DNA of 64,000 nt from Acidobacteriota bacterium. GTDB taxonomy: Bacteria; Acidobacteriota; Terriglobia; Terriglobales; SCQP01. How positions within the stretch are numbered: position 1 is the stretch's first letter; every line of letters starts with the position of its first letter. A model generated the notes under the pieces. That model was not told the DNA's origin and did no database searches. It saw only the letters and a list, made by a program, of their open reading frames with translations. Where the stretch lies: the NCBI GenBank assembly GCA_027314025.1, contig DAHVCP010000044.1, positions 1,684 through 65,683 on the forward strand, in the 5' to 3' direction. Made by a program: the position numbers and the translations under genes. Positions 7,709-64,000 of the stretch are shown in pieces.

Positions 7709-7731
7709 GAAGGAGAACCGACCGCCCCTTG

Positions 7732-48527: not shown

Positions 48528-50135
48528 CTACTCGGGTTGCAAACCCGGCTGCGGCAGGTCGGCGCGAGCGGCGGAGGCGGGGATATGCCGCATCCCGCGG
48601 TCAAACTCCAGCACCGCGTCGGCCGGCGCTGAACCGCGCCAGTTCCGCAGGCTGGCCCAGACGGTGCGCAGGATCGCGGTGCGGTATTCCAGTAGCGCCC
48701 GGGTCCAGGCCCACGCGGTCCGCTGGGGGAAATAGATCCCGCGAAAGCACAGACGGGCAACGAGATGGCTGATTTGGTACGGGGCCGGGGCGGCGGCGAG
48801 CTTCTTCAGGGCCGCCCGCGTCGTCGCCGCTGAATAGGACGCCGCCCAGGCGTGATCCACCTCCCGGTGCACCTCGGCGATGCTCATGTGGAGCGGCGTG
48901 TGCGCCATGCGGAAGGGGGCGAAGTCGAGCCAGTGGGTGGGCCGGGTGAGCCGGCCTTCGGCGGCAAGCCGGCGGTAGAGCGGCGTGGAGGGAAATGGGG
49001 TGATCTGGCCAAACACCGGCAGCCCCGGCGGCCACTGGCGGATTTGCGCCAAGGTCCTGTCCGCGACGCCAGCTGTATCGTGGTCCAGGCCGAAGATGAA
49101 CGAGGTGATGGCGTAGACATTGCGGCGCGCCAGCCGCTCCAGCACGGCGGCGTATTCGCTGGGTTTGTTGAAGCTCTTATTCACCGCCTTCAAGTTGGCT
49201 GGGTCCAGCGATTCCATGCCAATAAAGACCCACTTGCCGCCGGAGGCAGCGATCAGGTCCACCAACTCCTCGTCGCGCAGCAGGTTGGCGCTGATCTGCG
49301 CCACCCAGGCGAGCTGGGCGCCGGCGGCGATGATGTCGCGGAGCAGTGACTTTGTGCGCTTGACGTTGATGGCGAAGTTGTCGTCCACGAAGAAGACGGC
49401 GATCTTCCCCTGCTCGCGGCGCGCGCGGGCCTTCAGGCGCAAGAGTTCGTCCACCACGCTTTCATTGGAGCGAAAGCGGATGGAATCGCCAAAAAACCCG
49501 GTCACGGTGCAGAACTCGCAACCGTAAGGACAGCCGCGGCCGGATTCGATGGGAATGAGGTGGAAGCTCCGCCACGGAACGCGCAACCGGGCGAAGAGCG
49601 GGCGGAGGGTTTTTGGGATCTTGTTGAACTGGGCAAGGTCGAGGGCCTCCCAGGCGATGCGGGGATAGTTCGCGAGGTCGGGCTTGCGCTCGCTCCCGGC
49701 GGCGTCGAGCGGCGCGTACACCTCCCGCAAACGGCCCTGGGCCGCATCCTCCACGATGCAGGGCCAGGTTTCATCCGCTTCCCCCAGCGCCACGGCGTCC
49801 GCGTGCCGCGGGCCGCCACTCCGGCCCAGGGCTTCGTCGGGCAGTTCGGTCACATGCGGGCCGCCCATGACGACCGGCACGCCGACGGCGCGGATGGCGT
49901 CGCCCGCACGATAGGCGCGGGCAATCATGCGGGTCATCGCCCCGATGCCGACCAGACCGACGCGATGCTCCTGAACAAAGCGCACCAACTGGGCATCGGT
50001 CAGGGGCGTGGCGTTGCCGTCCAGCAGCAGCACCTCATGGGGCGGCGGCGTCAGCGCCTGGAGCAAGAACATCCATAGGTGCGGCATGAAGTTGCCGCTG
50101 ATCCCATTGTCCGGGTTGTAGAGAAGGATTTTCAT
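48528..50135 (-). CDS. B12-binding-domain radical SAM protein
   Basis: N-terminal MKILLYNP..MGGPHVT, ESGRGCPYGCEFC (CxxxCxxC), FFVDDNF, FIGMES; ATG overlaps the upstream stop (ATGA). Confidence 0.9.
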   Translation of the reverse strand: MKILLYNPDNGISGNFMPHLWMFLLQALTPPPHEVLLLDGNATPLTDAQLVRFVQEHRVGLVGIGAMTRMIARAYRAGDAIRAVGVPVVMGGPHVTELPDEALGRSGGPRHADAVALGEADETWPCIVEDAAQGRLREVYAPLDAAGSERKPDLANYPRIAWEALDLAQFNKIPKTLRPLFARLRVPWRSFHLIPIESGRGCPYGCEFCTVTGFFGDSIRFRSNESVVDELLRLKARARREQGKIAVFFVDDNFAINVKRTKSLLRDIIAAGAQLAWVAQISANLLRDEELVDLIAASGGKWVFIGMESLDPANLKAVNKSFNKPSEYAAVLERLARRNVYAITSFIFGLDHDTAGVADRTLAQIRQWPPGLPVFGQITPFPSTPLYRRLAAEGRLTRPTHWLDFAPFRMAHTPLHMSIAEVHREVDHAWAASYSAATTRAALKKLAAAPAPYQISHLVARLCFRGIYFPQRTAWAWTRALLEYRTAILRTVWASLRNWRGSAPADAVLEFDRGMRHIPASAARADLPQPGLQPE

Positions 50136-50404
50136 GCTTGAACGGAGCCGATTCGCCGGCTGACGGCTCCCCTGGAAGGGCGGCGGGCAGCGACGGCCGG
50201 CACGTTGGATGCCGTCGCGCGCTGGTTGGCGTCGAGTCCAAAGAGTACCACGCCTGCGTCCAACACGGCGCCGCAATGGGGACAGAACTGACCGGGCGCC
50301 ACGCGCAGCAACGCGCGGCCGACACTCATCTGGAGAACCGCCCGGCCAGCCACCGTGTGGACACAAATTGGGCAACAGATCTCCGTTGTCCCCGCTTCCG
50401 CCAT
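50132..50404 (-). CDS. Small CxxC...CxxC (zinc-ribbon/rubredoxin-like) protein
   Basis: CPIC..LRVAPGQFCPHC...LDAG; RBS CAGGAG; translationally coupled to the radical SAM gene; paralog at 55648-56013. Confidence 0.75.
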   Translation of the reverse strand: MAEAGTTEICCPICVHTVAGRAVLQMSVGRALLRVAPGQFCPHCGAVLDAGVVLFGLDANQRATASNVPAVAARRPSRGAVSRRIGSVQA

Positions 50405-50472
50405 CAGCGTCTCCTGCCGCCTTTTCACGCGGCCTTCACTGCTTCAGCATAGGCAGGGGTTAGATGAGGCAC

Positions 50473-50488
50473 TGTTCACTCTTGCACA
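50473..50488 (-). promoter_or_regulatory. Crp/Fnr-like site at -41.5
   Basis: TGTTC-ACTCTT-GCACA; -10 TATGCT at 50451-50446. Confidence 0.7.
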
Positions 50489-50500
50489 CGCCGGGAGACC

Positions 50501-50772
50501 GCCTGGCGCGGGCCCCGGTGCGGCGGCGGGCTGCAGGCCCGCCGCATCCGGGCTGAAGCCCGTTCCGCGCTCCAAGCGAAGCGGTATGCGAGCCCCGGCC
50601 GCACGTCTACTGCTTGGCGCGGGCCCCGCGCGGCCGCGCCGCCGGCCCGCGCGCGGCGTCCGAACGCTGCCGACGAAGACACCGGCGCTCCAGGCCAGCC
50701 AGCGCGATGTCGCGGCCTTCTCAAGCCGGCTTCGCCCCCAATGCAAACAGCGCGACCCCGGCGATCGGCTGG
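50501..50772. repeat. Family B module, degenerate REP A and shortened family B element
   Basis: GCCTGGCGCGGGCCCC (50501); REP A-like 50525-50567; family B 50611-50772 ending GCCCCCAATGCAAACAGCGCGACCCCGGCGATCGGC. Confidence 0.6.
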
Positions 50773-50788
50773 TGTGCACAACGGAACC
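50773..50788 (+). promoter_or_regulatory. Crp/Fnr-like site at -41.5
   Basis: TGTGC-ACAACG-GAACC; -10 TACTGT at 50810-50815. Confidence 0.6.
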
Positions 50789-51203
50789 GCCGGCAAGGGC
50801 GGGGCCGTTTACTGTTTCCAATACGAGCGGCCTCCGCCGCGCCCGCGCGCCAAACGCGGGAGCGGACACGTGGCGGACCGTGCGTAGATTATGAGGTTTC
50901 CGATGCGAATGCGGATGGTCGTTGGGAGAGGGAAACGGCCGCTGACGCCATTACGGCGACCGGCTGGCACTTTGGATGGCCCGGGGGCGAGCAGCACCAG
51001 TGCGGGGCCGGCCGCACCGGGGGTGCGCCGCGGCGCCGGGTGCGAGCGTTACCTCGGCGCGCCTGGCTTTCTCCTACCCTATCCGTTGTTGCTAGCGCTG
51101 GGCGGCACGGCCGACGGCAGGGCCGCCAAGCGACGCGAAGATGCAAGACCTGATCCAAAGGTGGGCTGACGGCTGGCCAAGGCGCCGCGGAGGGGCCGGT
51201 GGT

Positions 51204-51821
51204 TCATCGCGGGGGCGAGCCCGGCGGCGCCAGGCGGCGAGCGCGCACGATGAACCGACGAGGCGCGGGCCCAATATAGTAGAACGGGTAACAGGTCACT
51301 AGCGTCAAAATGTCGCGGCGCGATGGAGCGAGGACGGCGAGGTCGGCGGGACTGACGATGGCTGTGGTCTGGACGCGATAACGGAACGACGCCGTGGACG
51401 TTTGCAGGGTGATGACCTGGCCCTCCCGAATGTTGCGCAGGGGACGGAAAAACGTGTCGCGGTGCCCCGCCAGGACGACGTTGCCGGGCTGGCCGGGAAG
51501 GGCGCTCCCGTCCCAATGCCCGACAGCATGGCGCAGTGCGCCGGCGCCCGTCCCTTGAACGATGACGGCGGCGACACCGAGCGAAGGAATCACGATCCGG
51601 CCCAACTCGGCGCCGGCCGCTGGCGGCAAGGCGAGGAATGCGGCGGAGGCGGCCCGCGCCGGGGCGGCGGCGCGGGCGGCACGCAACTGATCGAGCCGCC
51701 GATTGCCCGCGCGCTGGAACCTTGCCGCGCCCCAATACGAGAACCCCACCCAAAGCAGTGCGGCCGAGCCTGCAGCCACGGCGATCCGGCCCATCCAAGA
51801 CAGAACCATTCTGCGGGACAA
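51204..51821 (-). CDS. Class D sortase
   Basis: N-terminal TM; GNVVLAGHRDTFF (His), LTLVTCYPF (Cys), RFIVRA (Arg); start (TTG after AGGAG) approximate. Confidence 0.92.
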   Translation of the reverse strand: MSRRMVLSWMGRIAVAAGSAALLWVGFSYWGAARFQRAGNRRLDQLRAARAAAPARAASAAFLALPPAAGAELGRIVIPSLGVAAVIVQGTGAGALRHAVGHWDGSALPGQPGNVVLAGHRDTFFRPLRNIREGQVITLQTSTASFRYRVQTTAIVSPADLAVLAPSRRDILTLVTCYPFYYIGPAPRRFIVRARRLAPPGSPPR

Positions 51822-52047
51822 ACGATGACTCCTTTCCTGCAAAGCTCCGTCGCCGTTGGGAGTAGGGCGGGCGTTCCACCGTCCCGACGCGCCGCGCATG
51901 AGGGGTCTGGGCCGCAGGGCTGCGCCCGGCTCGGACCTTACGCTCACACCTAGACCGCCAAGCGGCGGCATCTCGGACGAGGGATGCCACCTCCCTCCCT
52001 GAGCCGCCCCGGCCGCCAGCCGGGCCGGGGTAGCGGCATCGCCCGGG

Positions 52048-52761
52048 CTAGGCGACCATGCGACGAGTGAAGGCGAGCATGCCCAGCCCCGCCGTGAGCA
52101 GCAGCGTGCCCAACAGCGCTATCAGCGGCAGCTCGCTGGCTGTCTTGGGCAGCGCCGGGGGCGGCGCCGCCGCGGCGACTTCCGCGGGGGCGGGGGCCGC
52201 GGGCTGGGGTGCGACGACGGTTTCAGCCGGAACCTCCTGGCCGCTGGGCTCGACGGCGGCGATCGGCGCCTGCCGGAGCGTTTTATCCGCGGCGGCAGGG
52301 GGAGCGGTGATCGCCGCAGCGAACTCCCGGGGCATCGTCAGCACGGGCGCCTGATTCGCCTTGGCCAACGCGAGCGCCTCCGCCTTGGGATAGACGAATT
52401 CCTGGCCGAAGTTGTCGCCAGGATAGAACCATGCGTGCAGAGCAATCGGAGTGTTCAGGGGCCGCTCGGAGAACGTGATTACGGTCCTATTGGTCGTGGT
52501 CATCCGGAAATTGCTGATCGCCAGAATGGTGGCGAACAGATGCGTCCCCTTCGCGTTAAAGATCTGAACGATGTTCCGGTCCCCCAGTGAGTCCATCAGC
52601 TTGAACATATAGGTTCCGGCGGGCAACACCATGCCGGGGATCTCGACGGGACCGCTAAAGGTAATGACGGTTTTCTTGTTCCAATTGTCCGCCCGAGCCC
52701 TGGGCAGGAACATGGACCCCATCATCGCCAAACAAATAACGAGAACGTGCAATCTGCGCAT
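52048..52761 (-). CDS. Secreted protein with LPxTA sortase signal
   Basis: Signal peptide; C-terminal LPKTAS-ELPLIALLGTLLLTAGLGMLAF-TRR; RBS GGAGG. Confidence 0.88.
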   Translation of the reverse strand: MRRLHVLVICLAMMGSMFLPRARADNWNKKTVITFSGPVEIPGMVLPAGTYMFKLMDSLGDRNIVQIFNAKGTHLFATILAISNFRMTTTNRTVITFSERPLNTPIALHAWFYPGDNFGQEFVYPKAEALALAKANQAPVLTMPREFAAAITAPPAAADKTLRQAPIAAVEPSGQEVPAETVVAPQPAAPAPAEVAAAAPPPALPKTASELPLIALLGTLLLTAGLGMLAFTRRMVA

Positions 52762-52858
52762 GGAACTAACCTCCAACACTCGCGCCCTGGGCCGGCCACG
52801 TGCGGGCGGCCCTGAGGGGGCTACCCTTGTTACGTTAGCGGGGACGGGGTGCGCGCGC

Positions 52859-52874
52859 TGTGCAATTGTGAGCC
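52859..52874 (-). promoter_or_regulatory. Crp/Fnr-like site at -41.5
   Basis: TGTGC-AATTGT-GAGCC; -10 TAACGT at 52837-52832. Confidence 0.6.
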
Positions 52875-52937
52875 CGACGGTACGGTGCACCCGACGCCGC
52901 GCACTTCACGCACTGCGCGGCGGGAGACCAGCGAGGC

Positions 52938-52953
52938 AGTGCAGTTGTGCGCA
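52938..52953 (+). promoter_or_regulatory. Crp/Fnr-like site at -41.5
   Basis: AGTGC-AGTTGT-GCGCA; -10 TACGGT at 52975-52980. Confidence 0.6.
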
Positions 52954-53080
52954 GACCGGCGAAGGCGGAAGGGATACGGTCAAGGCTTGATCGGTGCGCG
53001 GGCGTTGCGGCGGAGCAGTTCCCCCGGTCGGGAGCGAACCGACTCCGGCCGCACGCTGTTCCCGCGGCGAGGACAGCTCC

Positions 53081-53185
53081 ATGCTTCGGGTAATTTTCAT
53101 CACGATGTGGGTGTTTTGGCTGGCGGGCATCGCCGCGGCAGTGAATCTAGCGGGCGTCTGCTTCTTCGGCCGCTGGCGCGGTTAG
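53081..53185 (+). CDS. Putative 34-aa single-TM peptide
   Basis: MLRVIFITMWVFWLAGIAAAVNLAGVCFFGRWRG; GAGGA upstream; lies downstream of a predicted promoter. Confidence 0.45.
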   Translation: MLRVIFITMWVFWLAGIAAAVNLAGVCFFGRWRG

Positions 53186-53301
53186 CGGGCGCGACGTTCG
53201 GAAGGCGCCACAGGCAGGGTGCAGCGCGGGCGTCCTCAGCGGCTGCTGGGCAGGGGTTGGGACAGGCAAATGTGCGGACCTGAGGTAGATGAGGTGACCG
53301 T

Positions 53302-54285
53302 ATGAACTGCGGGTTGAGGCCACCAACGGCGGCCCATGCTGGGGTGCTTGCGCTGGTGTTTGCCTGCGGCCTGCCGGCGGCGTCGCAGACCGCGGCGCGC
53401 CTGCGCACTCGGTTTCAGTTCTCGACGACCTCGGCCTTAGTGGTACTGCCCGTTGTGGTGACGGGCCCGCATGGGCGCTTCGTCTCCGGGCTGCCCGCGA
53501 AGGATTTCCAGGTCTACGAGGATGGGCGGAGGCAAAAGCTGACGCTGTTCGAGGAGGGCAACGCGCCGATCAGCGTGGCGATCGTGGTGGACCGCAGCGG
53601 GAGCATGGCGGGCAAATCCGAGGAGGCGGCCGGCGCCATCGCCGCCTTCGCGCGGGCCAGTGATCCGCAAGATCAGATCTTGATGGTTGAGTTCAACGAC
53701 CATCCCGCATATTTGGGCACGCACCATAGCCCGTTCTGGCGAAGCCGGCAGCGGGTGCTCGCGGCCGCCGAGGCGCTGCCGGTGGGCGGGGAGACGGCGC
53801 TGTATGACGCGGTGGACTTAGGGCTGCGGCGGCTGCGGCGGAGCCAGTGGCGGCGCCGCGCGCTGGTGATCCTGAGCGACGGCGGCAACAATGCCGGCCG
53901 GCTGCGCTTTCGGCAAGTGCTGGCGCGGGCGCGACGGTCCTCGGTCACGATTTACGCCATTGGCTTGCTCGGCGCTCAGGACGAGGAGGAGAATCCGGGG
54001 CTGCTGAAGCGACTCTGCTGGGCGACCGGCGGCGTTGCGTACTTTCCGCACGCCGCCGGCGCGGCGGTGGCGGCGGCCACCGCGGCGATCGCCGGCGAGC
54101 TTCGCCAACAATACACGCTGGGCTACGTGCCGGGAGCCTTGCACGGAAGCGGGCGCTTCCGCCGTATCCAAGTGCGCCTGGTCGGCCCAGGAAGCGGCAA
54201 GCTGCGGGCACGCACGCGGCCAGGCTATGAGGCGGCGCCGCTGGGACCCTCGGCCCGTGGCGACCACCCGCCGCCAGGGGTATAA
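53302..54285 (+). CDS. Acidobacterial VWA-domain protein
   Basis: MIDAS DRSGSM, GETALYDAV, ILSDGG, ATGG, LRQQYTLGY. Confidence 0.88.
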   Translation: MNCGLRPPTAAHAGVLALVFACGLPAASQTAARLRTRFQFSTTSALVVLPVVVTGPHGRFVSGLPAKDFQVYEDGRRQKLTLFEEGNAPISVAIVVDRSGSMAGKSEEAAGAIAAFARASDPQDQILMVEFNDHPAYLGTHHSPFWRSRQRVLAAAEALPVGGETALYDAVDLGLRRLRRSQWRRRALVILSDGGNNAGRLRFRQVLARARRSSVTIYAIGLLGAQDEEENPGLLKRLCWATGGVAYFPHAAGAAVAAATAAIAGELRQQYTLGYVPGALHGSGRFRRIQVRLVGPGSGKLRARTRPGYEAAPLGPSARGDHPPPGV

Positions 54286-54495
54286 GCACGGGCAGGGCCC
54301 GCTTCCGCGCCGCACGGCGCAGGCGCGGTTGGCGCGGCCCCAGCCATTTCATCGCCGAGGGCCCGGCGGGCCGCGCGGCGGCGGCGCCAGGCGCGGGCGA
54401 GAACCAGGCGTAGCCGCCCCCAAGCCGGCAGCCGGGAGCGCCGCGGGCGCCGGCGCCCGGAGGCGGGCACGGAATCCGGGCGCGGCGGTTGCGCT

Positions 54496-55494
54496 CTACA
54501 GCCCGTCATGCGCCCCTCCCGCCGGGAGAGCGGCCGAACGGTTGTTCGCCGCCGCACCGGCCCGTTCTGGGACGGGGACCGCAGCGGCGGCGTCCAGTGT
54601 CGCCCGGTTGCCGCGGTCACGCTCCAAGCCCATGCTCAGCGCCGTCAGGCCCGTCAGGCCGCCGAGCTGCATGGTTTCAATCGCCGAACTGGGCGCCATG
54701 ACGATGGTGGAATTTTGCTTGAGCGCCTCATACAGCATGTTCATGCCGCGGAGATGGAACGCGACGGGGTCGCCGGCGTAGGTTCGCGCCGCCGCGACGA
54801 ACTTTTCCGCCACCTGGCGCTCGGAATCTCCCAAGATTACCCGCGCCTGGCGTTCCCGTTCCGCTTGCGCCTGCATGGACATGGCATTCTCCAGCGCCGG
54901 GGGAATCAGCACGTCCTTGACCTCCACCGAGATCACCCGAATGCCCCATGGCTCGGTGCGCTCATCAATGATCGTCCGCAGGATGCCGCTGATCTTGTCC
55001 CTGCCTTCCAGGAGTTCCGCCAGCATGGATTTGCCGATGACGTCGCGCAGGGCCGTCTGCGACGCCCAACTGATCGCACTCGGATAGTCGGCGACATCCA
55101 GGGCCGCCTTTCTGGGATCCACGATTTTCCAAAAGAGAACGGCATCCACGTCCACGGGGACGGTATCCTTGCTCAGCGTTTTCTCCGCCTTGAACGAGCT
55201 GGTGAGGATCCGCGTGTCAATCCAGTAAGGGATGGTTTCAATCAGCGGCATTAGCGCGAACAACCCCGGCCCGCGCAATGCGCGGAACTTGCCGAGACGC
55301 AGGACGACGGCCTTGTTCCATTGGTCCGCGATCTGCACCGACGACGCCACGCTGAGCGCAACCAAGAAGGCGGCGCCGAGCACGGCGACCGCGGCCAGAT
55401 TGTCGGAGGCCCGGTGCTGGGCGTAGGCAACCGCCGCGCCGAGGCCGAGGATGACGACGAACAGCAGGAGTGGGAATGAGCTGGCTTTCCGCAT
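54496..55494 (-). CDS. SPFH/slipin (stomatin-like) membrane protein
   Basis: AVVLRLGK, LSKDTVPVDVDAV, QTALRDVIG, EPWGIRV.SVEVKDV, QAQAERERQA. Confidence 0.92.
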   Translation of the reverse strand: MRKASSFPLLLFVVILGLGAAVAYAQHRASDNLAAVAVLGAAFLVALSVASSVQIADQWNKAVVLRLGKFRALRGPGLFALMPLIETIPYWIDTRILTSSFKAEKTLSKDTVPVDVDAVLFWKIVDPRKAALDVADYPSAISWASQTALRDVIGKSMLAELLEGRDKISGILRTIIDERTEPWGIRVISVEVKDVLIPPALENAMSMQAQAERERQARVILGDSERQVAEKFVAAARTYAGDPVAFHLRGMNMLYEALKQNSTIVMAPSSAIETMQLGGLTGLTALSMGLERDRGNRATLDAAAAVPVPERAGAAANNRSAALPAGGAHDGL

Positions 55495-55647
55495 TTCGAA
55501 TTACCTCATTACCGCCGCACCGCGCCGCCGTTCCGCTCGCGAGGAACAGCTCCCGCGCCGGGCGTCCTGGGCAGTGGACGCCTGTTGCGCTCAACCCGTG
55601 CGGCCCGTCGCGTCGGCCGCCGCGTCCTTGCGCGGCCCCCGGGGTGA

Positions 55648-56013
55648 TCACGCGCTGCGTTCGTTGGCGGCCGCGTGGTGCAGCGTTCGGGTTTCACGCG
55701 GCGGAAGCCGACGCGCGAATCCTGTCCGCGGATCAGACGGCTGGATTCGCCCCGCCGGGTGCACCCCTGCCCGTGCCGGCGCCACAAGGCACCGCAGCAA
55801 CAGCGGCGCCGACACGGATCCAGTCCACGCGCCAGTCAGACCCTCGAATGCCGAGCCGGCGTCCAGCGGCCCCAGGCAATGGCGGCAGCGCTGACCGGGC
55901 AACACCCGCAGGCGAAACCGACCGCAACGCACGACGGGAAGCGCAAGCCCCTCCACTTCCCGCGTGCACGTCGGGCAGGTAATGCGTGCTTTCGATACCA
56001 GCTTCATGGGCAT
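55648..56013 (-). CDS. Small CxxC...CxxC protein, paralog of 50132-50404
   Basis: CPTC..LRVLPGQRCRHC...LDAG; RBS GAGAGG; the C-terminal tail may be read-through. Confidence 0.65.
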   Translation of the reverse strand: MPMKLVSKARITCPTCTREVEGLALPVVRCGRFRLRVLPGQRCRHCLGPLDAGSAFEGLTGAWTGSVSAPLLLRCLVAPARAGVHPAGRIQPSDPRTGFARRLPPRETRTLHHAAANERSA

Positions 56014-56104
56014 ATGGACCTCTCTTTGATCTGACCGACTGGCGCCGCGGCATGCCGGCGCCGGCCTCGACTGCCGGCGCACCGAACCGCGGCAACGGCG
56101 CAGG

Positions 56105-56395
56105 CTACGGCTTCGCCGCAGGCCGCTCCGGTCCGGCAGGGCGGGCCTCCCCGGCGGCGGCGACGGGGCGGTCCGCAGCGGGCCGCTGGCGCACCTCACG
56201 TTCCGCCTGAAGCCAGTTCTGCATGTCGGAGCCCCCGTGCTTACCACGCGACAACTCGTACGCGCGGCGGCTAATCTGCTCTCGCGCCGCGTTGGCCACG
56301 GTCTCCGAGCCGTTCGGAGCAGTGGCGGCGTCGTGGCGCTCGGTTCCCTGGTCGTGGCGCTCGGTTCCCTGATGGTTGTGTTTGTTGTGTCCCAT
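56105..56395 (-). CDS. DUF2934-like small protein
   Basis: EQISRRAYEL..G..G.DMQNWLQAERE; internal 21-bp tandem duplication at 56331-56372 (QGTERHD x2). Confidence 0.8.
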   Translation of the reverse strand: MGHNKHNHQGTERHDQGTERHDAATAPNGSETVANAAREQISRRAYELSRGKHGGSDMQNWLQAEREVRQRPAADRPVAAAGEARPAGPERPAAKP

Positions 56396-56492
56396 GCTGT
56401 AATCCGTATCCTTCTCCCGTGGTCGGGTATTGTTAGCCAAGCGTGCGCCGGGCGTGGCCGTCCGCGCCAACCGCGGCGCGTGAGTGAACCTC

Positions 56493-57053
56493 CTACGCGG
56501 CGGTGCGAGCGGCGGGGTGCTCCGAGTTTCCGTAGTCGCCCCGGGATTCCGCCACGACGCCAATGTCTTCAGCGCCGGTCCGTCGCAGGCGCGCCTTGGC
56601 CCGCGTGGTCCAGCTCGGATCATCACAATGGATGGACAGCAGGAGTCCGGCACTTTTGGTGCGGCCGGTGTAGCGCTTGGCCTCATAACGAGGGATGGCT
56701 GAGCCGAAGATCGCCCCAACCAAGGCGCCGATCACGCCACCTACGCCCACGCCGCTGAGCAACACCAACACAGGACCGGCAAGGATGACTGCTTGCAGCG
56801 CGGGCGTCTGCCAGTACCCCATGCCGAGCACCCAGCCGGCCGCACCGCCAACAATGCCGCCGAGGAAGCCGCCCCAGGCCGCTCCATCCAGCATCTTGGA
56901 GTGCTTTCGCACGGACAGATCCTTGGTGCCCACGCCCGCCGCCGACAAGACGGCCAGATCCGCGCTCCGAAAGCCGTCCTGTTCCAATTCGTAAAGCGCC
57001 GCCGCAACCTGCTCGCGGTTGGCGTAAATTCCGAATGCCGCCGTGTTTGCCAT
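56493..57053 (-). CDS. General-stress/DUF3341-like glycine-zipper membrane protein
   Basis: AAFGIY..L...GF...D.AVL, Gly-rich hairpin, IPRYEAKRY, LLSIHCD, TGAEDI. Confidence 0.75.
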   Translation of the reverse strand: MANTAAFGIYANREQVAAALYELEQDGFRSADLAVLSAAGVGTKDLSVRKHSKMLDGAAWGGFLGGIVGGAAGWVLGMGYWQTPALQAVILAGPVLVLLSGVGVGGVIGALVGAIFGSAIPRYEAKRYTGRTKSAGLLLSIHCDDPSWTTRAKARLRRTGAEDIGVVAESRGDYGNSEHPAARTAA

Positions 57054-57081
57054 ATCGCCTCTGCCTTGTATTGATCCAACC

Positions 57082-58539
57082 TCAGCTTGCGCCGCTTGGC
57101 GGAGCGGCGCTGTTCCGTTGTGCACCCTGGGCACGCGCGCCGGCGCCGACGCGATGATGCGACGAAGGGTTGTGCCAGCTTGCGCCGGGAGCGAGAATCG
57201 CGCCGGCGGCTTTCGGCCCCCAACCGCGGCGCCGGTACGGGAGAGCGGCGCGGTGGTGCTTCAGGACGGGCGCAACCACCGCCCAGGCGGCTTCGACCGC
57301 GTCCTCCCGGGTGAACAGCGCGGTGTCGCCGTTCATTGCCGCCGTTAACAGCCGCTCGTACGGCGCCTCCTGTCCCGGACGCTCTGCGGACAGGTAGAGT
57401 TCCCGCTGCTCTCCGGCAAAGACTTTGCCGGCCATCTTGACGCGCGCCGCCAGCGCGATGGCGGAATCGGGCGAAAGCCGGAAGCGCAGGTAGTTGGCGG
57501 GCCCGGCGGCCAATCCGGCATCGGGGAATAGTTTCCAGGACGGCGGCTTCAGCGCCACCAGGACCTCGGTCGCGGTTGCGGCCAGATATTTGCCGGAGCG
57601 CAGATACCAGGGCACGCCCCGCCAGCGCCGGGAGTTGATCAAAAGCCGCAGCGCGCAGAAGGTCTCGACGTCGGAGTTCTTCGCCACCGCTTTTTCCTCG
57701 CGGTAGCCATGGTATTGTCCGCGGACCATGTCGCCCGGCGCGAGGGGGCGCATGGCCCGAAACACCTTGGTCTTCTCAGCGTGCATGGCAGCCGGCTCCC
57801 GGCTGGCCGGCGGCTCCATGGCCAGCAGGGCGACGATTTGGAACAGGTGGTTCTGGACCACGTCGCGCAGGCAGCCGGCAGTCTCATAGAACGCGCCGCG
57901 GCCATTCACGCCGAAGGCTTCGGCCAGCGTGATCTGGACGCTGGCCACGTAGCGGTGGTTCCAGAACGATTCGAGGAAGGAATTGGCGAAGCGGAAGTAG
58001 AGGATATTCATGATCGCCTCCTTGGCCAGGAAGTGATCAATGCGGAAAATCGCGTTTTCGGGAAACACGGAGTGAGCGACACGGTTGAGTTGCCGCGCGG
58101 AGGCAAGATCACGCCCGAACGGCTTCTCGACGATGACACGCGCGTTCCGCCCCAAGCCGGCGGCGCCCAGGCCGCGCACGACCGTCGGGAAGAGAGCGGG
58201 CGGAATCGCGAGGTAGTGCGCCGGGCGCCGGGCGCGGCCCAGCGCCCGTTTGATTGCGGCATACGTGGCGGGGTCGTTGTAGTCTCCGCTGACGTACCGG
58301 AACAGGGCGAGAAAACGCCGGAAGGCGCGCGGATCGTCAATACCACCGGATCGCGTGACGCTGGCGGTGATCCGCTTGTGGAGACGCTCCAGGCTCCACT
58401 TCGGGAGGGCGACGCCGATGACCGGGACGTTGAGCGTGCCGCGTTTCACCATGGCGTACAGAGCCGGAAAGGTCATTTTCCGGGCGAGGTCTCCAGTGGC
58501 CCCAAACAGCACCAACGCATCCGAGCGGCGAGCCGGCAT
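57082..58539 (-). CDS. zwf: Glucose-6-phosphate 1-dehydrogenase
   Basis: FGATGDLA, IVEKPFG, FRIDHFLAKE, RDVVQNHL, WRGVPWYLRSGK. Confidence 0.92.
   Translation of the reverse strand: MPARRSDALVLFGATGDLARKMTFPALYAMVKRGTLNVPVIGVALPKWSLERLHKRITASVTRSGGIDDPRAFRRFLALFRYVSGDYNDPATYAAIKRALGRARRPAHYLAIPPALFPTVVRGLGAAGLGRNARVIVEKPFGRDLASARQLNRVAHSVFPENAIFRIDHFLAKEAIMNILYFRFANSFLESFWNHRYVASVQITLAEAFGVNGRGAFYETAGCLRDVVQNHLFQIVALLAMEPPASREPAAMHAEKTKVFRAMRPLAPGDMVRGQYHGYREEKAVAKNSDVETFCALRLLINSRRWRGVPWYLRSGKYLAATATEVLVALKPPSWKLFPDAGLAAGPANYLRFRLSPDSAIALAARVKMAGKVFAGEQRELYLSAERPGQEAPYERLLTAAMNGDTALFTREDAVEAAWAVVAPVLKHHRAALPYRRRGWGPKAAGAILAPGASWHNPSSHHRVGAGARAQGAQRNSAAPPSGAS
57111..57126 (-). promoter_or_regulatory. 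Crp/Fnr-like site at -41.5 (within the zwf 3' end)
   Basis: TGTTC-CGTTGT-GCACC; -10 CAAGCT at 57089-57084. Confidence 0.6.
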
Positions 58540-58835
58540 CGCGCCTCCTTTCTTGTGGCCGTGATGTTTTGTTCCTAGCGGCGCGCCGCCAGTTGGGGAG
58601 CCCCAGGAAGCGGGCCGGACGCGTGCCGATTAGCGGCGGGCGCGCGCCCGGGGCCGGCGCTGCGGGAAGACCTCAAAGGCCGGGCGGCGGGCCGCCCGGC
58701 GGAATGTTGCGGCCTTTTCGCGCCGACTTTGCCCCCAGGTGCAAATGGCGGGACCCCCGCGATCGGCAGCTGCCGAGCCGACGGGGGCGACAACGGGAAC
58801 AGAAAGGAGCCACAGCTCCGCAGGGGAGGCACCCG

Positions 58836-58994
58836 CTACCCCTTGAGCTTTTCACCCTGGCAGCCGGGGTGCTGGCATTGGCAGGTGATTTCCGTGACGC
58901 GCTTGGCGTCGGCGCAGGTATCACTGCAATACTTTTTGCCCTCTTTGGGAACACAGTTGCACGCCCGATGGGCGCATTTCGCGGTGTTTTTCAT
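58836..58994 (-). CDS. Metallothionein-like Cys-rich peptide (52 aa)
   Basis: MKNTAKCAHRACNCVPKEGKKYCSDTCADAKRVTEITCQCQHPGCQGEKLKG; RBS AAGGAG; short hairpin plus T-run at 58801-58819. Not in the ORF track. Confidence 0.8.
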   Translation of the reverse strand: MKNTAKCAHRACNCVPKEGKKYCSDTCADAKRVTEITCQCQHPGCQGEKLKG

Positions 58995-59106
58995 GGAATC
59001 TCCTTGCAATGGAACGTTCTTCCGACCCTAGCCATCATTGCCTGGCGCGGGCCCCAGCGCGGCTGCGCCGCGCGTCCCGCGTTGCCGGGCGCGGGCAAGT
59101 GCTGCG

Positions 59107-59772
59107 TCACTGAAGGACGACGATGGACACGCAAGGGCCACGGTGATACCAGTCGCACAAGATGTATCCGGCGCCCGTGTCCTGGATGTAGAACTGGTCG
59201 GTGTCGTACCACTCGCCCGGCCAGGGCTGAAGAAAACCGAACCAGTAGCCGCCGCCTTGAAACGCCGAATAGCCGCCGCGCATCCGCAGGCCATCCAAGC
59301 GAAACCGGTGCTGATCGCCAAAATAGGCGCGATAGTGCTGATCGGGAATACGCCGGTCATTGCGGCGGGCCAGGCGGATTTGCGGCCGCTGGCGCCCGCG
59401 GAAGCCCTGCCGTTGCTCGGCCGGTGCTCCACGCCGGTTCGCTGGAGCCGATTGGCCTCGCCGTTGGTACTGATTTTGCCACTGCGTCTGCTGGCCGGGC
59501 CGCTGAGGCTGCCGCGGCGCGGGACGGGCCTGGCGGCCTTGGCGCGGCGCAAAGCGCTGGCCTTGCTTCGCCGGCTGGCGCTGCCGCGCTTTGGCCGCTT
59601 GGGGCTGGCGCGCCGCTGGGGCGCGCTGCTGACTCGGCTTCTCCTTACGGGGTTTTGCCTCCTGGGCTTGTGCCTTGCTCAGCGGCGGGCGGGCCTCTCC
59701 TGCCAGGCCCAGCGCGCCGACAACGGAAAGCATCAGCAGAGAGAGAACCCCAGCCCTTGCCATGCGTCGCAT
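59107..59772 (-). CDS. Secreted protein: Q/R/P-rich disordered N-half, aromatic C-domain
   Basis: RBS GGAGG; signal peptide; RIPDQHYRAYFG..HRF..GGYWF..PWP..WYDTD. Confidence 0.75.
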   Translation of the reverse strand: MRRMARAGVLSLLMLSVVGALGLAGEARPPLSKAQAQEAKPRKEKPSQQRAPAARQPQAAKARQRQPAKQGQRFAPRQGRQARPAPRQPQRPGQQTQWQNQYQRRGQSAPANRRGAPAEQRQGFRGRQRPQIRLARRNDRRIPDQHYRAYFGDQHRFRLDGLRMRGGYSAFQGGGYWFGFLQPWPGEWYDTDQFYIQDTGAGYILCDWYHRGPCVSIVVLQ

Positions 59773-59840
59773 ACCAGCCTCCATCGCAGGCGGCTTGCAT
59801 CGACCAGCCGCCGCATTGCGGTCATTATGTTGGTTCAGCC

Positions 59841-60764
59841 CTAACGATGAGGCTCAACCCGCGCGGCGGCTGCCCTGTTGTGCACAGCCGCGCTCCGCGT
59901 GACAGGCCGCTTGACCCGGTCCGCCAATCCCACCGCCTCCAGGGCGCAAATCAGGTACCATCCGATGTCCACCTGCCACCAGCGCCGCGCGAAGGGGGCG
60001 ACGCCGGCGGCGGCGTGATGATTGGCGTGCCAGTTTTCTCCCCAGGCGCCGAGTTGCAGTGGGCCGAGCCACCAAACGTTCTGACTGCGGTCGCGTCCGG
60101 CCGCGGGACCCAGATGGGTAAGGCTGTTGACGAAGCATTGGAGGTGCAAGCAATAGACCAGACGGATGGCCCCAATCCAGAAAAACCCCGCCCAGCCCAA
60201 CGCCAAGCCGCAACCCAGGGAAAGCAGCAGGACGGGCACTTCCGCCCGTCCCCAGACCCGGTAGCGTCCGTGGTCCAGGTCGGGACACCAACGTTGCGAT
60301 TCCGCCCGCGGCGACTGATAGAGCCAGCGCAGATGCGCCCACCAAAAACCGCCCTGCGAAGGGCTGGAAATATCCTGCTCGGTGTCGGCGCAAGCGTGAT
60401 GCAAGCGATGATAGGCGACCCAACTGGCGGGGGCGCCAGAGCCGTTGAACATGGCAGCGAAGATCAGCACCTGCTCGACGACCGGGTTGAGCCGCAGGGT
60501 GCGATGAGCCAGCAGGCGGTGGTAGCCGATGGTGGTTCCAAGGCCCCCGGCGGTGGCCAGCAGCGCGGCTATGCCGAACACTCGCCAACCCGGCAGCGGA
60601 AAGAGGATCAAGCCGGTAATCGCCAAGACATGAATCAACAGCAGATAAACAAAAACGCCGGATTTGCCCGGGGCGGGCCGCCACCAGGGCTGATTCCACG
60701 GCCAGGGGCCGCGGGCCAGGCCGCCGCGTCGCACCAGGGCGGAATGAAGATGGGATTGCGGCAT
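59841..60764 (-). CDS. Membrane fatty-acid desaturase (delta-9-like)
   Basis: His boxes GYHRLLAH, HRLHH, ENWHANHH; RBS GGGGAGG before ATG at 60764. Confidence 0.9.
   Translation of the reverse strand: MPQSHLHSALVRRGGLARGPWPWNQPWWRPAPGKSGVFVYLLLIHVLAITGLILFPLPGWRVFGIAALLATAGGLGTTIGYHRLLAHRTLRLNPVVEQVLIFAAMFNGSGAPASWVAYHRLHHACADTEQDISSPSQGGFWWAHLRWLYQSPRAESQRWCPDLDHGRYRVWGRAEVPVLLLSLGCGLALGWAGFFWIGAIRLVYCLHLQCFVNSLTHLGPAAGRDRSQNVWWLGPLQLGAWGENWHANHHAAAGVAPFARRWWQVDIGWYLICALEAVGLADRVKRPVTRSAAVHNRAAAARVEPHR
59871..59886 (-). promoter_or_regulatory. Crp/Fnr-like site at -61.5 (within the desaturase 3' end)
   Basis: TGCCC-TGTTGT-GCACA; -10 CATAAT at 59829-59824. Confidence 0.55.
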
Positions 60765-60878
60765 GAAACGCCTCCCCACGGGGACGAAGCCGACGGGCGG
60801 CAGCGCGGTCTTGGCGCGCCGACGTCCGCGCCCGTCCATAACGTCTCGTTTAGGATCCTGCGCGGCGGCCCGCCCGGC

Positions 60879-60894
60879 TGCCCAATTTGCAACA
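60879..60894 (-). promoter_or_regulatory. Weak Crp/Fnr-like site at -41.5
   Basis: TGCCC-AATTTG-CAACA; -10 GATCCT at 60857-60852. Confidence 0.4.
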
Positions 60895-60981
60895 TTGCTC
60901 GGCGCGGGCCCCAGCGCGGCTCCCACCCCAGCGCGCGCCGGTGCGCGCCGGGGGCCCCGGGTCTGCGCCGCGCGTCCCGCT

Positions 60982-61222
60982 TTGCTTGGCGCGGGCCCCA
61001 GCGCGGCTGCGCCGCGCGTCCCGCTGGACGCGGGGGCGATGCTGGGGGCCCCGTTGGCCCCAGTTCCCGCCCGCGCTTCGCGGGTACCACGCCGCTGGCG
61101 GGGCGCGGTTTCTCAATCCCGGCGGCAAGGACGCCGGCGCTCCAGCCCGCCCGGCAGAATGGCGCGGCCGTTTCCCGGCAACGTTGCCCCCCAGTGCAAA
61201 CGGCCACACCCCACGCAAGGGA
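60982..61222 (+). repeat. Full-length family B structured repeat (~240 bp)
   Basis: Aligns along its length with 63217-63460; a partial copy lies just upstream at 60895. Confidence 0.75.
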
Positions 61223-61361
61223 TGCGAGATTTCCGGCGCCGCGCCGGAACCGACAGGTGTTAAATAGAAGATGATTTTTCGCACGGACGCCGCGGCTTGC
61301 GACTGCTCGGCTCCTGCCCGAGGAGCAGTGCCCGGCCTGGCGCCCGCGTTGGAGCACCGCG

Positions 61362-62969
61362 ATGCGCGTTCTGTTGATTTACCCGCGCCGCGACCCCGGA
61401 TCCCCGGTTCGCACGCAATTCAGCCTCGAGAAGCTCCATGAACTGCCGCTTTGGCCGCTGCGGGCGCGAAGTTACGGTTTCCAGTTCAACGGGCTGGAGA
61501 CGCTCGCGGCCATGACCCCGCGCTGGGTCAAGCTCACGGTGGTGAATGAAAACCTGAGGGACATCCACTTCGACGCGCGCGTGGATCTGGTGGCCATAAC
61601 GGTCATGGTGACCAACGCGACGCGGGCGTACCAAATCTCTGACGCATTCCGCAAGCGGGGCGTGAAGGTGGTGCTGGGCGGCTATCACCCGTTCATGGTG
61701 CCGGACCACGCCTTGCAGCATGCGGACGCCATCTGCGCGAGCGAGGCGGAGATGGTATGGGAGCGGATCTTGGAAGATGCGCGGGACGGCAAGCTGCGCC
61801 CCACCTACGTTCAGGAGGGCAAGACCGACATGGCCGCGCTGTGCCAGCCGCCGCGGGTACGGCGGCGGGAGTGGATGCGCCACGTGGTGCTGACGCTGCA
61901 AGCCAGCCGCGGCTGCCCGTTCGACTGCGATTTCTGCTCGATCATCCAAATGCTGGGCCACGACATGCGGTACAAGACCCCGGAGCACCTCTGCGCCGAG
62001 CTGGAGACGATCTACCGCAATGACCTGGTGGGACGCTGGTACTGCCGGCCGATCTTTTTCGTGGACGACAACATCTTCGGGCGGCCGCGCGAGCTCAAAT
62101 CCCTGCTGCGCGGCATCATCGCTCTCAACCGCCGGCATCCCCGCTTCCGCGCGGTATTCGGCTCGCAGATGACGATCAATGCCTACAAAGACAAGGAGGC
62201 GCTGGAGCTGCTCCAGGAAGCTGGTTTTTACTACATCTTCATGGGTCTGGAGAGCCAGGATCCAGCGACCCTGCGAGCCTATAACAAGCTGCACAATATC
62301 GCCTTCAACTACGACGACGCGGTTGCGGCCCTGCGCGCGCACGACATGGAGGTCATCGCGAGCTTCATCTTTGGCACCGACACCGACACCGAAGCTTGCT
62401 TTGAGGCGGCGTACGACTTTTTCGACCGCACCAACGTCCTGTACCCGTATTTCAACATCCTGACGCCCACGGCCAAGCAGTGGTTTCGCTTTTTGGACGA
62501 GGGCCGCCTGATCACCGCCAAGGCGAAGCTCTACGACGCCCACCACACGGTATTCGTGCCCATGCTGATGACGCCGCGGCGGCTCCAGGAGGGGTTCATC
62601 GCGCTGGTGAACCGCACGTTCGATTATGGCAACGTCGCCAAGCGGCTATTGGCGGCGCGGCCGGCGCGGCGGCAGCGGCACCGTTTGGCCCTCCCTCTGC
62701 CGCTGGAAAAGCTGACCTACGCCAAAATCCACTGGACGCTGGGGCGGACGGGCGACCAGGCCAGCCAGCGCTTTCTGGAAGCGCTGCGGCCGCCCGTTTG
62801 GTCGGGCCGCATTCCAATGGCGGAGGCGCTGCTGCAAATTGACCAGCATGACTGGGCGGTGCGCAATCAAGCCACGCTGCGCGAGTGCCACTCGTTGGAC
62901 GTCCCGGCATGGAGCGCGCGCGGCGCAGCCGCGGGCCGAGAGCGCACCGCCACGAGCGCCGCCAGCTAG
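61362..62969 (+). CDS. B12-binding-domain radical SAM protein
   Basis: MRVLLIYP, VLGGYHP, QASRGCPFDCDFC, FFVDDNIF, FMGLES. Confidence 0.9.
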   Translation: MRVLLIYPRRDPGSPVRTQFSLEKLHELPLWPLRARSYGFQFNGLETLAAMTPRWVKLTVVNENLRDIHFDARVDLVAITVMVTNATRAYQISDAFRKRGVKVVLGGYHPFMVPDHALQHADAICASEAEMVWERILEDARDGKLRPTYVQEGKTDMAALCQPPRVRRREWMRHVVLTLQASRGCPFDCDFCSIIQMLGHDMRYKTPEHLCAELETIYRNDLVGRWYCRPIFFVDDNIFGRPRELKSLLRGIIALNRRHPRFRAVFGSQMTINAYKDKEALELLQEAGFYYIFMGLESQDPATLRAYNKLHNIAFNYDDAVAALRAHDMEVIASFIFGTDTDTEACFEAAYDFFDRTNVLYPYFNILTPTAKQWFRFLDEGRLITAKAKLYDAHHTVFVPMLMTPRRLQEGFIALVNRTFDYGNVAKRLLAARPARRQRHRLALPLPLEKLTYAKIHWTLGRTGDQASQRFLEALRPPVWSGRIPMAEALLQIDQHDWAVRNQATLRECHSLDVPAWSARGAAAGRERTATSAAS

Positions 62970-62970
62970 C

Positions 62971-63460
62971 CATTGACGGGCGCGGGCCCCCAGCCCCGCC
63001 TGCGGCGGGGCGTCCCGCTTCGGCGCCAGGCTGGGCCGGGGGCCCCGCTCGCCCCAGCCCAGCCGGCGCGGCGATGGGGCTGCGCCGCTTCGCTGGCCGG
63101 GGGCGGGCCGCCGTGCGGAATTTCGCGGCCTTTTCGCGCCGACTTTGCCCCGGGTGCAGACGGCGCGTCCCCCGCGAGAGGCCCAGCCGGCGCGGCGATG
63201 GCGGGCGCCGCACCACATTGCCTAGCGCGGGTCCCAGCCCTGCCTGCGGCAGGGCGTCGCGCTTGGCGCGCAAGCGGGCTTGGGGGCCGCGTGCGCCCCA
63301 GCCCCTGCCCGCGCGTCGCTGGGGCCGCGCCGCTGGCCCGCACGCGGTGTCCCAATACCCCGGCGAGGACGCCGGCGCTCCAGCCCGCGCGGCGGATTGG
63401 CGCAGCCTTTTGGCGCCGTTTTTGCCCCATGTGCAAACGGCGCGACCCGTGACCTGGGGG
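62971..63460 (+). repeat. Tandem pair of family B repeats (~246 bp period)
   Basis: CATTG..GCGCGGGYCCCAG-hairpin-GTCSCGC ... TTTGCCCCNNGTGCARACGGCGCG, starting at 62971 and 63216. Confidence 0.75.
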
Positions 63461-63544
63461 CAGCTGGCGCGCGCGGCCGGACGGAGGGTCGGCGGGGCCG
63501 GCGGGGCGAGCGGTTCGAGGCGCGAGATGCTCCACGCGGCTAGC

Positions 63545-63560
63545 TGTTCAATTCTGGATA
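63545..63560 (+). promoter_or_regulatory. Crp/Fnr-like site at -41.5
   Basis: TGTTC-AATTCT-GGATA; -10 TAGCTT at 63582-63587. Confidence 0.55.
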
Positions 63561-63660
63561 GTGAGCCCGGCGGGGGGCGGGTAGCTTGAGAGAGCAAGAC
63601 GCTTACAAGGTCAGCTCCGGGATTGCCCTGGGAGCTTGCTTGAGGGCAAGGAGAACAGCC

Positions 63661-64000
63661 ATGAAAACTCGCTACCTCAGTTTCCTTCTTTTGTTCGGCC
63701 TGGCGGCGATGTCGCCGGGCGTGGCAATGGCCGGGCCCATCCTCGGCCCCGCGTTATCCACGTTCGCGGTGCTGGGCGGGTCAGCGGTGACCAACACCGG
63801 GACCACCACCATCGGCGGCAACATCGGCGTATATCCGGGCACCTCGATCAGCGGAATCAGCGGCGGCGCCGCGACCGCGGATCTGGCGCAGAGCCAACTC
63901 TCGACGGCGATGTCGGAGCTGGCCGGGGTCACGCCCGTGACCACGCTGGCGTCCTCGGACCTGACGTTGGCGGGGACGCTTGGGCCGGGCTTCTATAGCG
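63661..64000 (+). CDS. Ice-binding family (DUF3494) secreted protein, truncated by the window end
   Basis: RBS AAGGAG; MKTRYLSFLLLFGLAAM..AGPIL..FAVLGGSAVTNTGTTTIGGNIGVYPGTSISG..TLGPGFY. Not in the ORF track. Confidence 0.8.
   Translation, partial: MKTRYLSFLLLFGLAAMSPGVAMAGPILGPALSTFAVLGGSAVTNTGTTTIGGNIGVYPGTSISGISGGAATADLAQSQLSTAMSELAGVTPVTTLASSDLTLAGTLGPGFYS

Follow-up and report, generated by a model that had tools for sequence, protein, structure and literature searches.

The DNA analyzed here, which we call the window, is a 64,000-nucleotide (nt) stretch of an Acidobacteriota genome (G000; 3.81 Mb, 75 contigs, 68% G+C) that corresponds to positions 1684 to 65683 of contig C65. An earlier note had proposed that the right-hand part of the window carries eight Crp/Fnr-like sites, centered at -41.5 or -61.5 if the putative -10 hexamers are taken as -12 to -7, that define a hidden regulon. 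Our analysis indicates that seven of these 16-mers (all but the one at 52938) are probably binding sites of a single dimeric factor of the Crp/Fnr family, the 232-amino-acid product of a gene on contig C59 of the same genome, which would act as a class II activator of its own gene and of the cluster in which the sites lie; we put the probability of this reading at roughly 0.82. All eight 16-mers (8 of 8 in a sequence check) lie where the earlier note placed them, but the regulon is not genome-wide: in G000 it consists essentially of the local cluster plus a paralogous cluster on contig C71.

Two ways of scoring the sites were discarded. A matrix built from the eight sites themselves was circular, in that 7 of its 18 genome matches at or above 16 bits were its own training sites, and a tally of exact occurrences of two core words, TGTGCACA and GTGCACAAC, in the genome was uninformative, the words being rare and mostly in coding DNA. 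A preliminary matrix made from seven sites of other genera only gave 17.9 bits for the site at 50473, 9.5 for 50773, 15.0 for 52859, 10.9 for 52938, 9.5 for 57111, 14.5 for 60879, 17.8 for 63545, and 11.4 for 59871. The matrix on which the analysis rests, M2, is an oriented matrix of 56 unique sites from 80 loci of other Acidobacteriota. Its consensus is T1 G2 T3 k C5 A m w w k T G12 a A14 C15 A16 g, or in short form TGTkCA-N4-TGaACA(g), a dyad-symmetric 16-mer. Under M2, seven of the eight sites score at least 10 bits, the exception being 52938. There are 22 positions of at least 14 bits in the genome, and 5 of them fall within 50300 to 63700 (13.4 kb), where 0.077 would be expected (Poisson P = 2e-8). 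At the 10-bit threshold, the same region holds nine positions (expected, 0.28), comprising the seven noted sites and two intragenic positions (55126 and 56980), and no position in the window from 1 to 50299 reaches it; labels of intergenic and coding DNA are approximate throughout, as they come from a crude codon-usage gene caller (79.5% coding). In 200 dinucleotide-preserving shuffles of the region, the mean number of positions at 14 bits was 0.045 and the maximum was 1. The enrichment over background for which the earlier note had asked is thus borne out with an independent matrix and a shuffle control, and its caveat that the sites had been picked by eye applies to 52938 only.

Matches to the motif are followed by a -10-like hexamer at a nearly fixed distance. 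Downstream of 140 matrix matches in the 80 foreign loci, TAnnnT stood 58 times at +21, 17 times at +22, and no more than 5 times at any other offset. Among 252 oriented matches of at least 16 bits under M2, TAnnnT occurred 70 times at +21, 17 times at +22, and 5 times at +23 against a background of ~2, and CAnnnT occurred 23 times at +21 against a background of ~3. G000 itself shows the same preference: TAnnnT stands at +21 in 5 of 34 oriented matches of at least 14 bits, compared to a mean of 0.11 per other offset. No -35 consensus was seen in columns 17 to 37 of the 56 aligned promoters, and a scan for the sigma-70 consensus returned 0 promoters between 48000 and 64000. The predicted arrangement, strongly supported by these counts, is that of a class II Crp/Fnr promoter with the site centered at about -41.5 if the hexamer is taken as -12 to -7. 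For seven of the sites, the gap between the 16-mer and the hexamer assigned to it in the earlier note is exactly 21 nt, so that the -41.5 arithmetic is right on the same assumption, and the class II behavior that it proposed agrees with the general finding of dyad-symmetric 16-mers 21 to 22 nt upstream of TAnnnT or CAnnnT. The arithmetic is also right for the eighth site, 59871, which was placed at -61.5 (41 nt to CATAAT), but the class I interpretation found no support: at +41 and +42, the 252 oriented matches gave 3 and 2 occurrences of TAnnnT and 6 and 0 of CAnnnT, which is background.

Three of the sites recur in other genera. The sortase-substrate-like gene downstream of 52859 has orthologs there with 62 to 65% protein identity, and the orthologous sites score 22.5 bits in G007, 16.2 in G024, and 10.5 in G009, each standing 21 to 22 nt before a TAnnnT hexamer. 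The orthologs of 57111 score 19.1 (G009), 19.8 (G010), and 17.5 bits (G011) and lie 21 to 22 nt before CATGCT or CATATT; an ortholog of 60879 is present in the desaturase/radical SAM intergenic region of G009. Around these cross-genus sites the intergenic DNA cannot be aligned by eye, and the spacing to the -10 hexamer is unchanged. An 11.45-kb contig of G009 (its contig C59), syntenic with 51 to 63 kb of the window, contains five matrix matches, all intergenic and all 21 to 22 nt from a -10-like hexamer, two of which are not seeds of the matrix. G005, a genome that is 98% complete, has no site at the orthologs of the genes downstream of 52859 and 57111 (best scores, 3.6 and -0.7 bits), and the regulator described below was not found in it.

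As the earlier note had stated, no Crp/Fnr gene lies in the window; six genes of the genome exceed the Pfam cutoff for HTH_Crp_2, all on other contigs. The candidate regulator is the 232-amino-acid protein encoded at 2975 to 3670 of contig C59. One contig of the congener G003 matches the end of C65 and, farther along, C59, and by this synteny the gene very probably lies about 3.8 kb past the right end of the window, on the plus strand. Two motif matches lie upstream of it, one of 17.6 bits that precedes TATAGT by 23 nt and one of 16.9 bits. In other genomes the gene keeps company with the same cluster: it is divergent from the sortase-substrate gene in G009 and G007, with a site common to both, it adjoins the ActD-like gene in G011, and in G003 it shares a contig with the ice-binding, radical SAM, and desaturase genes. 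The protein matches PF00027 (cNMP_binding) at residues 39 to 122 with 64.4 bits (cutoff, 27.5) and PF13545 (HTH_Crp_2) with 50 bits (cutoff, 27; 52.1 bits in the genome search), and it is predicted to have both hallmarks of the Crp/Fnr superfamily, an N-terminal beta-roll domain and a C-terminal helix-turn-helix. Its nearest relative of solved structure is the Mycobacterium tuberculosis CRP (E = 2e-21, residues 28 to 217); the pocket Gly-Glu and Arg align with the mycobacterial protein, and the residue after the Arg is Met. The recognition helix, TTRSRVNFFMNKF, occurs in one of the six Crp family genes of the genome, is invariant in eight orthologs, and is at least 95% conserved across 81 homologs. 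In the RETVNK helix of the M. tuberculosis CRP, the Glu, the residue that reads the fourth base of TGTGA, has Ser as its counterpart in the C59 protein; this exchange would agree with a motif that is degenerate at position 4 and has C at position 5. Redox or Fe-S sensing was considered on account of three cysteines that are invariant in close orthologs, and the idea was dropped when C86 proved to be Phe in 64% and C147 to be Val in 65% of the 81 homologs.

The regulator and the motif are linked by position. The 80 loci, from named public metagenome-assembled genomes of Acidobacteriota (Terriglobales, Acidoferrales, Vicinamibacterales, and others), were collected with a protein profile made from the eight orthologs. 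A match of at least 14 bits lies within 450 nt upstream of the regulator gene at 30 of the 80, and when matches are binned in 250-nt steps around that gene, 27 fall in the bin from -250 to 0 and no more than 8 in every other bin. Presence of the gene and of the motif also go together. In family f1, a strict pattern (TGTNC-N6-GNACA, 21 to 22 nt, TANNNT) was counted 24 times in 12 genomes with the regulator and 4 times in 13 others in which no regulator was detected (3 times in 9 genomes when the unpublished G001, G012, G013, and G015 are left out), compared to 2 and 2 for the reversed pattern that served as the control. In soil Acidobacteria the regulator is widespread, and relatives of it are encoded at no fewer than 487 loci of species-representative genomes.

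The orientation assumed in the earlier note places each site upstream of a gene, except 50773. By their high M2 scores, three sites are strong candidates. Site 50473 (50473 to 50488, minus strand; TGTGCAAGAGTGAACA when read toward the -10 hexamer) lies upstream of a B12-binding radical SAM gene (48528 to 50375, minus strand), with TATGCT (50446 to 50451, minus strand) 21 nt away. At 21.6 bits it is the third-best position in the genome, and in G003, where its flanks have diverged, five positions of the site are changed and the fit to the motif is retained. A further candidate at ~50359 to 50378, in or adjoining the start of the same radical SAM gene, was dropped at less than 10 bits under M2. 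Site 57111 (57111 to 57126, minus strand; 16.6 bits), whose cross-genus conservation adds to its standing as a strong candidate, is 65 nt upstream of an ActD-like gene (56493 to 57053, minus strand), within the last codons of the G6PD gene, and its -10-like hexamer is CAAGCT (57084 to 57089, minus strand). Site 63545 (63545 to 63560, plus strand; 17.3 bits) lies upstream of an ice-binding-like gene that starts at 63661 (plus strand), with TAGCTT (63582 to 63587) at +21; in G003 it differs by two changes in the central spacer, and the hexamer is TAACTT.

Two sites are good candidates by score. Site 50773 (50773 to 50788, plus strand; TGTGCACAACGGAACC) scores 15.3 bits, has TACTGT (50810 to 50815, plus strand) at +21, faces a 380-nt stretch (50822 to 51203), and is unchanged in the congener G002 and altered by one change in G003. 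Site 59871 (59871 to 59886, minus strand; 14.8 bits) lies upstream of a hypothetical gene (59107 to 59784, minus strand), within the 3' end of the desaturase-like gene; it is conserved in G003, which is of little information because the DNA is coding. With CATCGT (59844 to 59849) at +21, CATAAT (59824 to 59829) at +41, and no family-level peak at +41 or +42, a class II reading suits this site better than a class I reading. Moderate scores and cross-genus conservation make the next two moderate candidates. Site 52859 (52859 to 52874, minus strand), upstream of the sortase-substrate-like gene (52048 to 52761, minus strand) and the class D sortase gene (51204 to 51971, minus strand), scores 12.0 bits toward the genes and 13.2 on the opposite strand, and its hexamer is TAACGT (52832 to 52837, minus strand). 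Site 60879 (60879 to 60894, minus strand; 10.4 bits) lies upstream of a DesA-like desaturase gene (59841 to 60764, minus strand), has GATCCT as its hexamer, and is present in G003 and G002. The remaining site, 52938 (52938 to 52953, plus strand), is doubtful. It faces a small open reading frame (ORF) at 53081 to 53185 and a VWA gene at 53302 to 54285 and has TACGGT at +21, but with 7.3 bits, mismatches at the near-invariant positions 1 and 14, and conservation only in G002 and G003, both of the same genus, it is unsupported as a site of this motif.

According to the mechanism that we propose, the factor would sit at the -35 position and recruit RNA polymerase as a class II activator, its activation depending on binding of a ligand by the N-terminal cyclic-nucleotide-type domain. 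It would then switch on its own gene together with a compact cluster of envelope and stress genes, namely, those for two B12-radical-SAM enzymes, the sortase and its substrate, a glycine-zipper/DUF2934/SPFH operon, the desaturase, the secreted ice-binding-like protein, and a DUF5670 membrane peptide.

Several observations weigh against this mechanism or against parts of it. The sites in the window are weaker than the autoregulatory sites elsewhere, and 52859 (12.0 bits) and 60879 (10.4 bits) would not stand without their orthologs. The seeds behind the 56 training sites were orthologs of 52859, 57111, and 60879; the fully independent confirmations are 50473, 50773, 63545, and 59871. None of the sequencing runs that contain this DNA is listed as RNA, and the hexamers are -10 boxes by inference only. 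The hexamer of 60879 is of the GAnnnT type, for which the 252 oriented matches show no family-wide enrichment, and the ortholog of this site in G009, TGTTCAAAATTGGACA, is nearer to the divergent radical SAM gene (49 nt) than to the desaturase gene. Sites 57111 and 59871 are inside the 3' ends of upstream genes. The stretch that 50773 faces, 50822 to 51203 on the plus strand, contains no recognizable gene, no ORF signal, and no Rfam family at or near threshold; it is 88 to 91% identical in two congeners, homologs were found only within the genus, and its substitutions show no codon periodicity (29, 20, and 19 by position modulo 3). It may be a regulator-dependent noncoding RNA or a very small gene. 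In the sister family f2, the strict pattern was no commoner than the reversed control (16 versus 18), and several f2 genomes have roughly 50%-identical homologs of the regulator. Finally, the genomes compared are related, so the co-occurrence counts overstate the case and are descriptive only.

A site that overlaps the -35 region could equally serve a repressor, and a center at -41.5 puts the site across part of the DNA that RNA polymerase occupies. The same protein at the same sites might therefore cover the -35 region and keep the cluster silent until a ligand releases it; sequence cannot tell occupancy-dependent activation from repression, and autoregulation is common in repressors too. We nevertheless regard repression as unlikely. 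The 56 aligned promoters have no -35 consensus and would be weak without help, and spacing that is precise to one base (70 at +21 versus 17 at +22) fits contacts with polymerase on one face of the helix and is needless for a roadblock. Known Crp/Fnr sites at -41.5 are, in addition, activating. Less likely again is that the motif is real and is read by another DNA-binding protein, its nearness to a Crp family gene reflecting no more than a shared stress island. Such islands do hold other regulators, the predicted targets including response regulators and DksA/TraR-type proteins; the 80 loci, however, were chosen by Crp family homology only, and the matches pile up directly upstream of that very gene. 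In its dyad symmetry, its length of 16 bp, and its TGT...ACA arms, the motif moreover follows the pattern of the Crp family, and it is missing in the near-complete G005, where the regulator was not found.

That all eight sites resemble the motif by chance, having been selected by eye beside AT-rich -10-like hexamers, was a concern raised by the caveat of the earlier note, by the circularity of the own-site matrix, and by the 7.3 bits of 52938 under M2. The enrichment under the independent matrix (P = 2e-8), the shuffles, the cross-genus conservation, and the spacing peaks refute this for the set as a whole, for which we consider it extremely improbable; it stays for 52938 alone. We give as little credence to the idea that the 16-mer is the upstream element of an alternative-sigma promoter or the end of one of the GC-rich mobile repeats of this genome. 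The promoter-proximal half, TGaACA, does resemble TTGACA, and 50473, 50773, 60879, and both C59 sites lie within 60 nt of a repeat copy, but the 21-nt gap to the -10 hexamer exceeds what a -35 element allows, conservation is equal in the two halves of the dyad, sites persist without repeats, and the repeats occupy ~128 loci compared to 22 strong motif positions.

The proposed Crp-type activation at these promoters has counterparts in known systems. E. coli CRP, which acts at class II promoters such as galP1 (Busby and Ebright), is a dimeric protein with a cNMP-binding domain and a helix-turn-helix, as the C59 protein is predicted to be. The two systems have in common a 16-bp TGT...ACA dyad, the lack of a usable -35 element, and, by prediction for the present one, a site center ~41.5 bp upstream of the start and autoregulation. 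The half-site is different, however (TGTkC here versus TGTGA), as are the recognition helix (R-S-R-V-N-F here versus the R-E-x-x-x-R type) and the regulon, which here is a local cluster and is global for CRP, and the C59 protein scores 47.5 bits for the NCBIfam equivalog NF008732, below its cutoff of 266. The earlier note was correct that the consensus departs from those of both CRP and FNR: C5 and G12 replace A5 and T12 of CRP, and the box is not TTGAT-N4-ATCAA. With FNR there is likeness in superfamily and in the predicted class II geometry; the NCBIfam score for FNR is 27.7 bits against a cutoff of 228, and the regulator family (81 homologs) has no conserved Fe-S cysteine set.

The cyanobacterial regulator NtcA binds GTA-N8-TAC ~22 nt upstream of a TAN3T -10 element. 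Its promoter geometry is the one found here (site, 21 to 22 nt, TAnnnT), and some of the orthologous sites (G010 and G011) end in GTACA. The C59 protein, however, scores 44.3 bits for TIGR03697 and so falls below the cutoff of 244.95, the consensus has C5/G12 in place of A4/T13, and the targets here are non-nitrogen genes. The closest solved relative by sequence is the M. tuberculosis CRP (Rv3676; PDB 3h3u, 3mzh, 3d0s, and 3i54), from which the C59 protein differs by low identity, by RSRVNF in place of RETVNK, and by Met in place of the Thr after the pocket Arg. Clr of Sinorhizobium meliloti offers another parallel in the passages of PMC5498481 that concern its box: the Clr-box is given there as TGTTN8AACA, relaxed to HGTYHCNNNNGRWACA, and Clr itself is Crp-like and an activator. 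Its box, 16 bp long with TGT...ACA arms, is off the CRP consensus at inner half-site positions, and its direct targets form a small set, several of them of unknown function. In terms of the boxes, not the proteins, the conserved C and G are at positions 6 and 11 in the Clr-box and at 5 and 12 here, and Clr is alphaproteobacterial with cAMP and cGMP as ligands, according to the same passages (PMC5498481). A search of the literature at the level of paper listings found no paper on an acidobacterial Crp/Fnr regulon or on this box, and supplementary tables may hold such a motif.

In G000, almost all matches with a proper -10 hexamer are on three contigs, C65, C59, and C71. Those on C59 are at the regulator gene and at a gene for a DUF5670 peptide (50.9 bits). 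The region from 54019 to 55850 of C71 is a paralogous cluster of sortase and substrate genes that carries the best motif match of the genome; a copy of the GC-rich repeat lies within its substrate-like gene and disrupts it. Predicted targets in other genomes were collected as the first ORF downstream of 127 oriented sites at the 80 loci, excluding regulator genes, and scanned against Pfam. The 127 ORFs include 13 for response-regulator-PAS-GGDEF proteins, 8 for DUF5670, 3 each for cold-shock domain and DUF202 proteins, and 2 each for KaiC, DksA/TraR, and PEP-CTERM proteins; the rest encode mostly small proteins with no Pfam family. By these annotations, the target set appears to resemble a stress or dormancy program. 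Four loci of public genomes of Vicinamibacterales or other Acidobacteriota (L128, L115, L117, and L145), all around homologs of the regulator, are dense islands of 6 to 10 oriented sites within 12.6 kb, many of them upstream of ORFs of 50 to 90 amino acids, and are far denser than the cluster in the window.

The Acidobacteriota rank with the most abundant bacteria of soil, and to our knowledge almost nothing is known about their gene regulation. The result is a testable pairing of a regulator (recognition helix TTRSRVNFFMNKF) with a 16-bp box, TGTkCA-N4-TGaACA, and a distance of 21 nt to the -10 hexamer. It provides a first list of likely targets (cyclic di-GMP cyclases, DUF5670 and cold-shock proteins, the sortase system, the desaturase, and B12-radical-SAM enzymes) and lets promoters and coregulated genes of uncultured Acidobacteria be annotated from sequence alone. 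Much more tentatively, we speculate that this Crp-type protein might be the master switch of a stress or dormancy program across soil Acidobacteriota and possibly other soil phyla, a possibility that we rate at well below even. A small-molecule signal in the nucleotide-type pocket would then induce not only the regulator but also diguanylate cyclases of the response-regulator-PAS-GGDEF type, cold-shock proteins, tiny membrane proteins such as DUF5670, and enzymes that remodel the envelope, and in this genus the GC-rich mobile repeats would insert preferentially beside the sites and so reshuffle the genes that are controlled.

The GC-rich dispersed repeats are ~170 to 320 nt long, start with ...TTGC(C/T)TGGCGCGGGCCCC, and occur at ~128 merged loci on 40 contigs of the genome, nearly all intergenic. 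One copy (50497 to 50770) lies between 50473 and 50773, outside the sites, and others are at 58683 to 58767 (partial), 59036 to 59096, 60893 to 61210, 62971 to 63182, and 63216 to 63460, as well as at 2655 to 2850 of contig C59 of G000. The presence of a given copy varies among the congeners G000, G002, and G003, the sites keeping their positions, and by this comparison the repeats appear to be mobile. That the sites are ends of repeats was rejected, as they persist where the repeat is lacking (the desaturase region of G002 and the ice-binding region of G003). Among motif matches of at least 12 bits, 5 of 39 lie within 60 nt of a repeat copy, compared to 1.4% of random intergenic positions, and two repeat copies have motif sites on both sides.

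The gene map of the region was drawn from Pfam and NCBIfam matches. To the left of the B12-binding radical SAM gene (48528 to 50375, minus strand) is a gene for a GH30 glycosidase (46481 to 48223, plus strand). The class D sortase matches NF058671 with 148.6 bits (cutoff, 140), and the sortase-substrate-like secreted protein has an LPKTAS end and a hydrophobic membrane anchor. The ORF at 53081 to 53185 (plus strand; 34 codons, beginning MLRVIFITMWVFWLAG) matched no Pfam or NCBIfam family and is probably the gene of a small membrane protein; it is kept in G002 and G003, despite a deletion just upstream in G002. The VWA gene that follows is on the plus strand. Then come, all on the minus strand, the SPFH gene (54496 to 55494), overlapping ORFs for a hypothetical and a DUF2934 protein (55648 to 56719; boundaries approximate), the gene for the ActD-like/glycine-zipper protein, the G6PD gene (57082 to 58539), the hypothetical gene downstream of 59871, and the desaturase gene; the second B12-radical SAM gene (61362 to 62969) and the gene for the ice-binding-like secreted protein are on the plus strand. 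The hypothetical gene at 59107 to 59784 is absent in G002, where the desaturase gene is directly followed by that for G6PD, and it is 66% identical in G003, compared to 90 to 97% for its neighbors. Elsewhere in the window, a SAM riboswitch (RF00162) is present at 7731 to 7885 on the minus strand (73.2 bits, above the gathering score). The top intergenic-enriched 8-mers of G000 follow the pattern (G)CTAnnnT (GCTACCCT, GCTAGACT, and GCTATACT are examples), an enrichment that may reflect a housekeeping -10 element preferentially preceded by C or GC.

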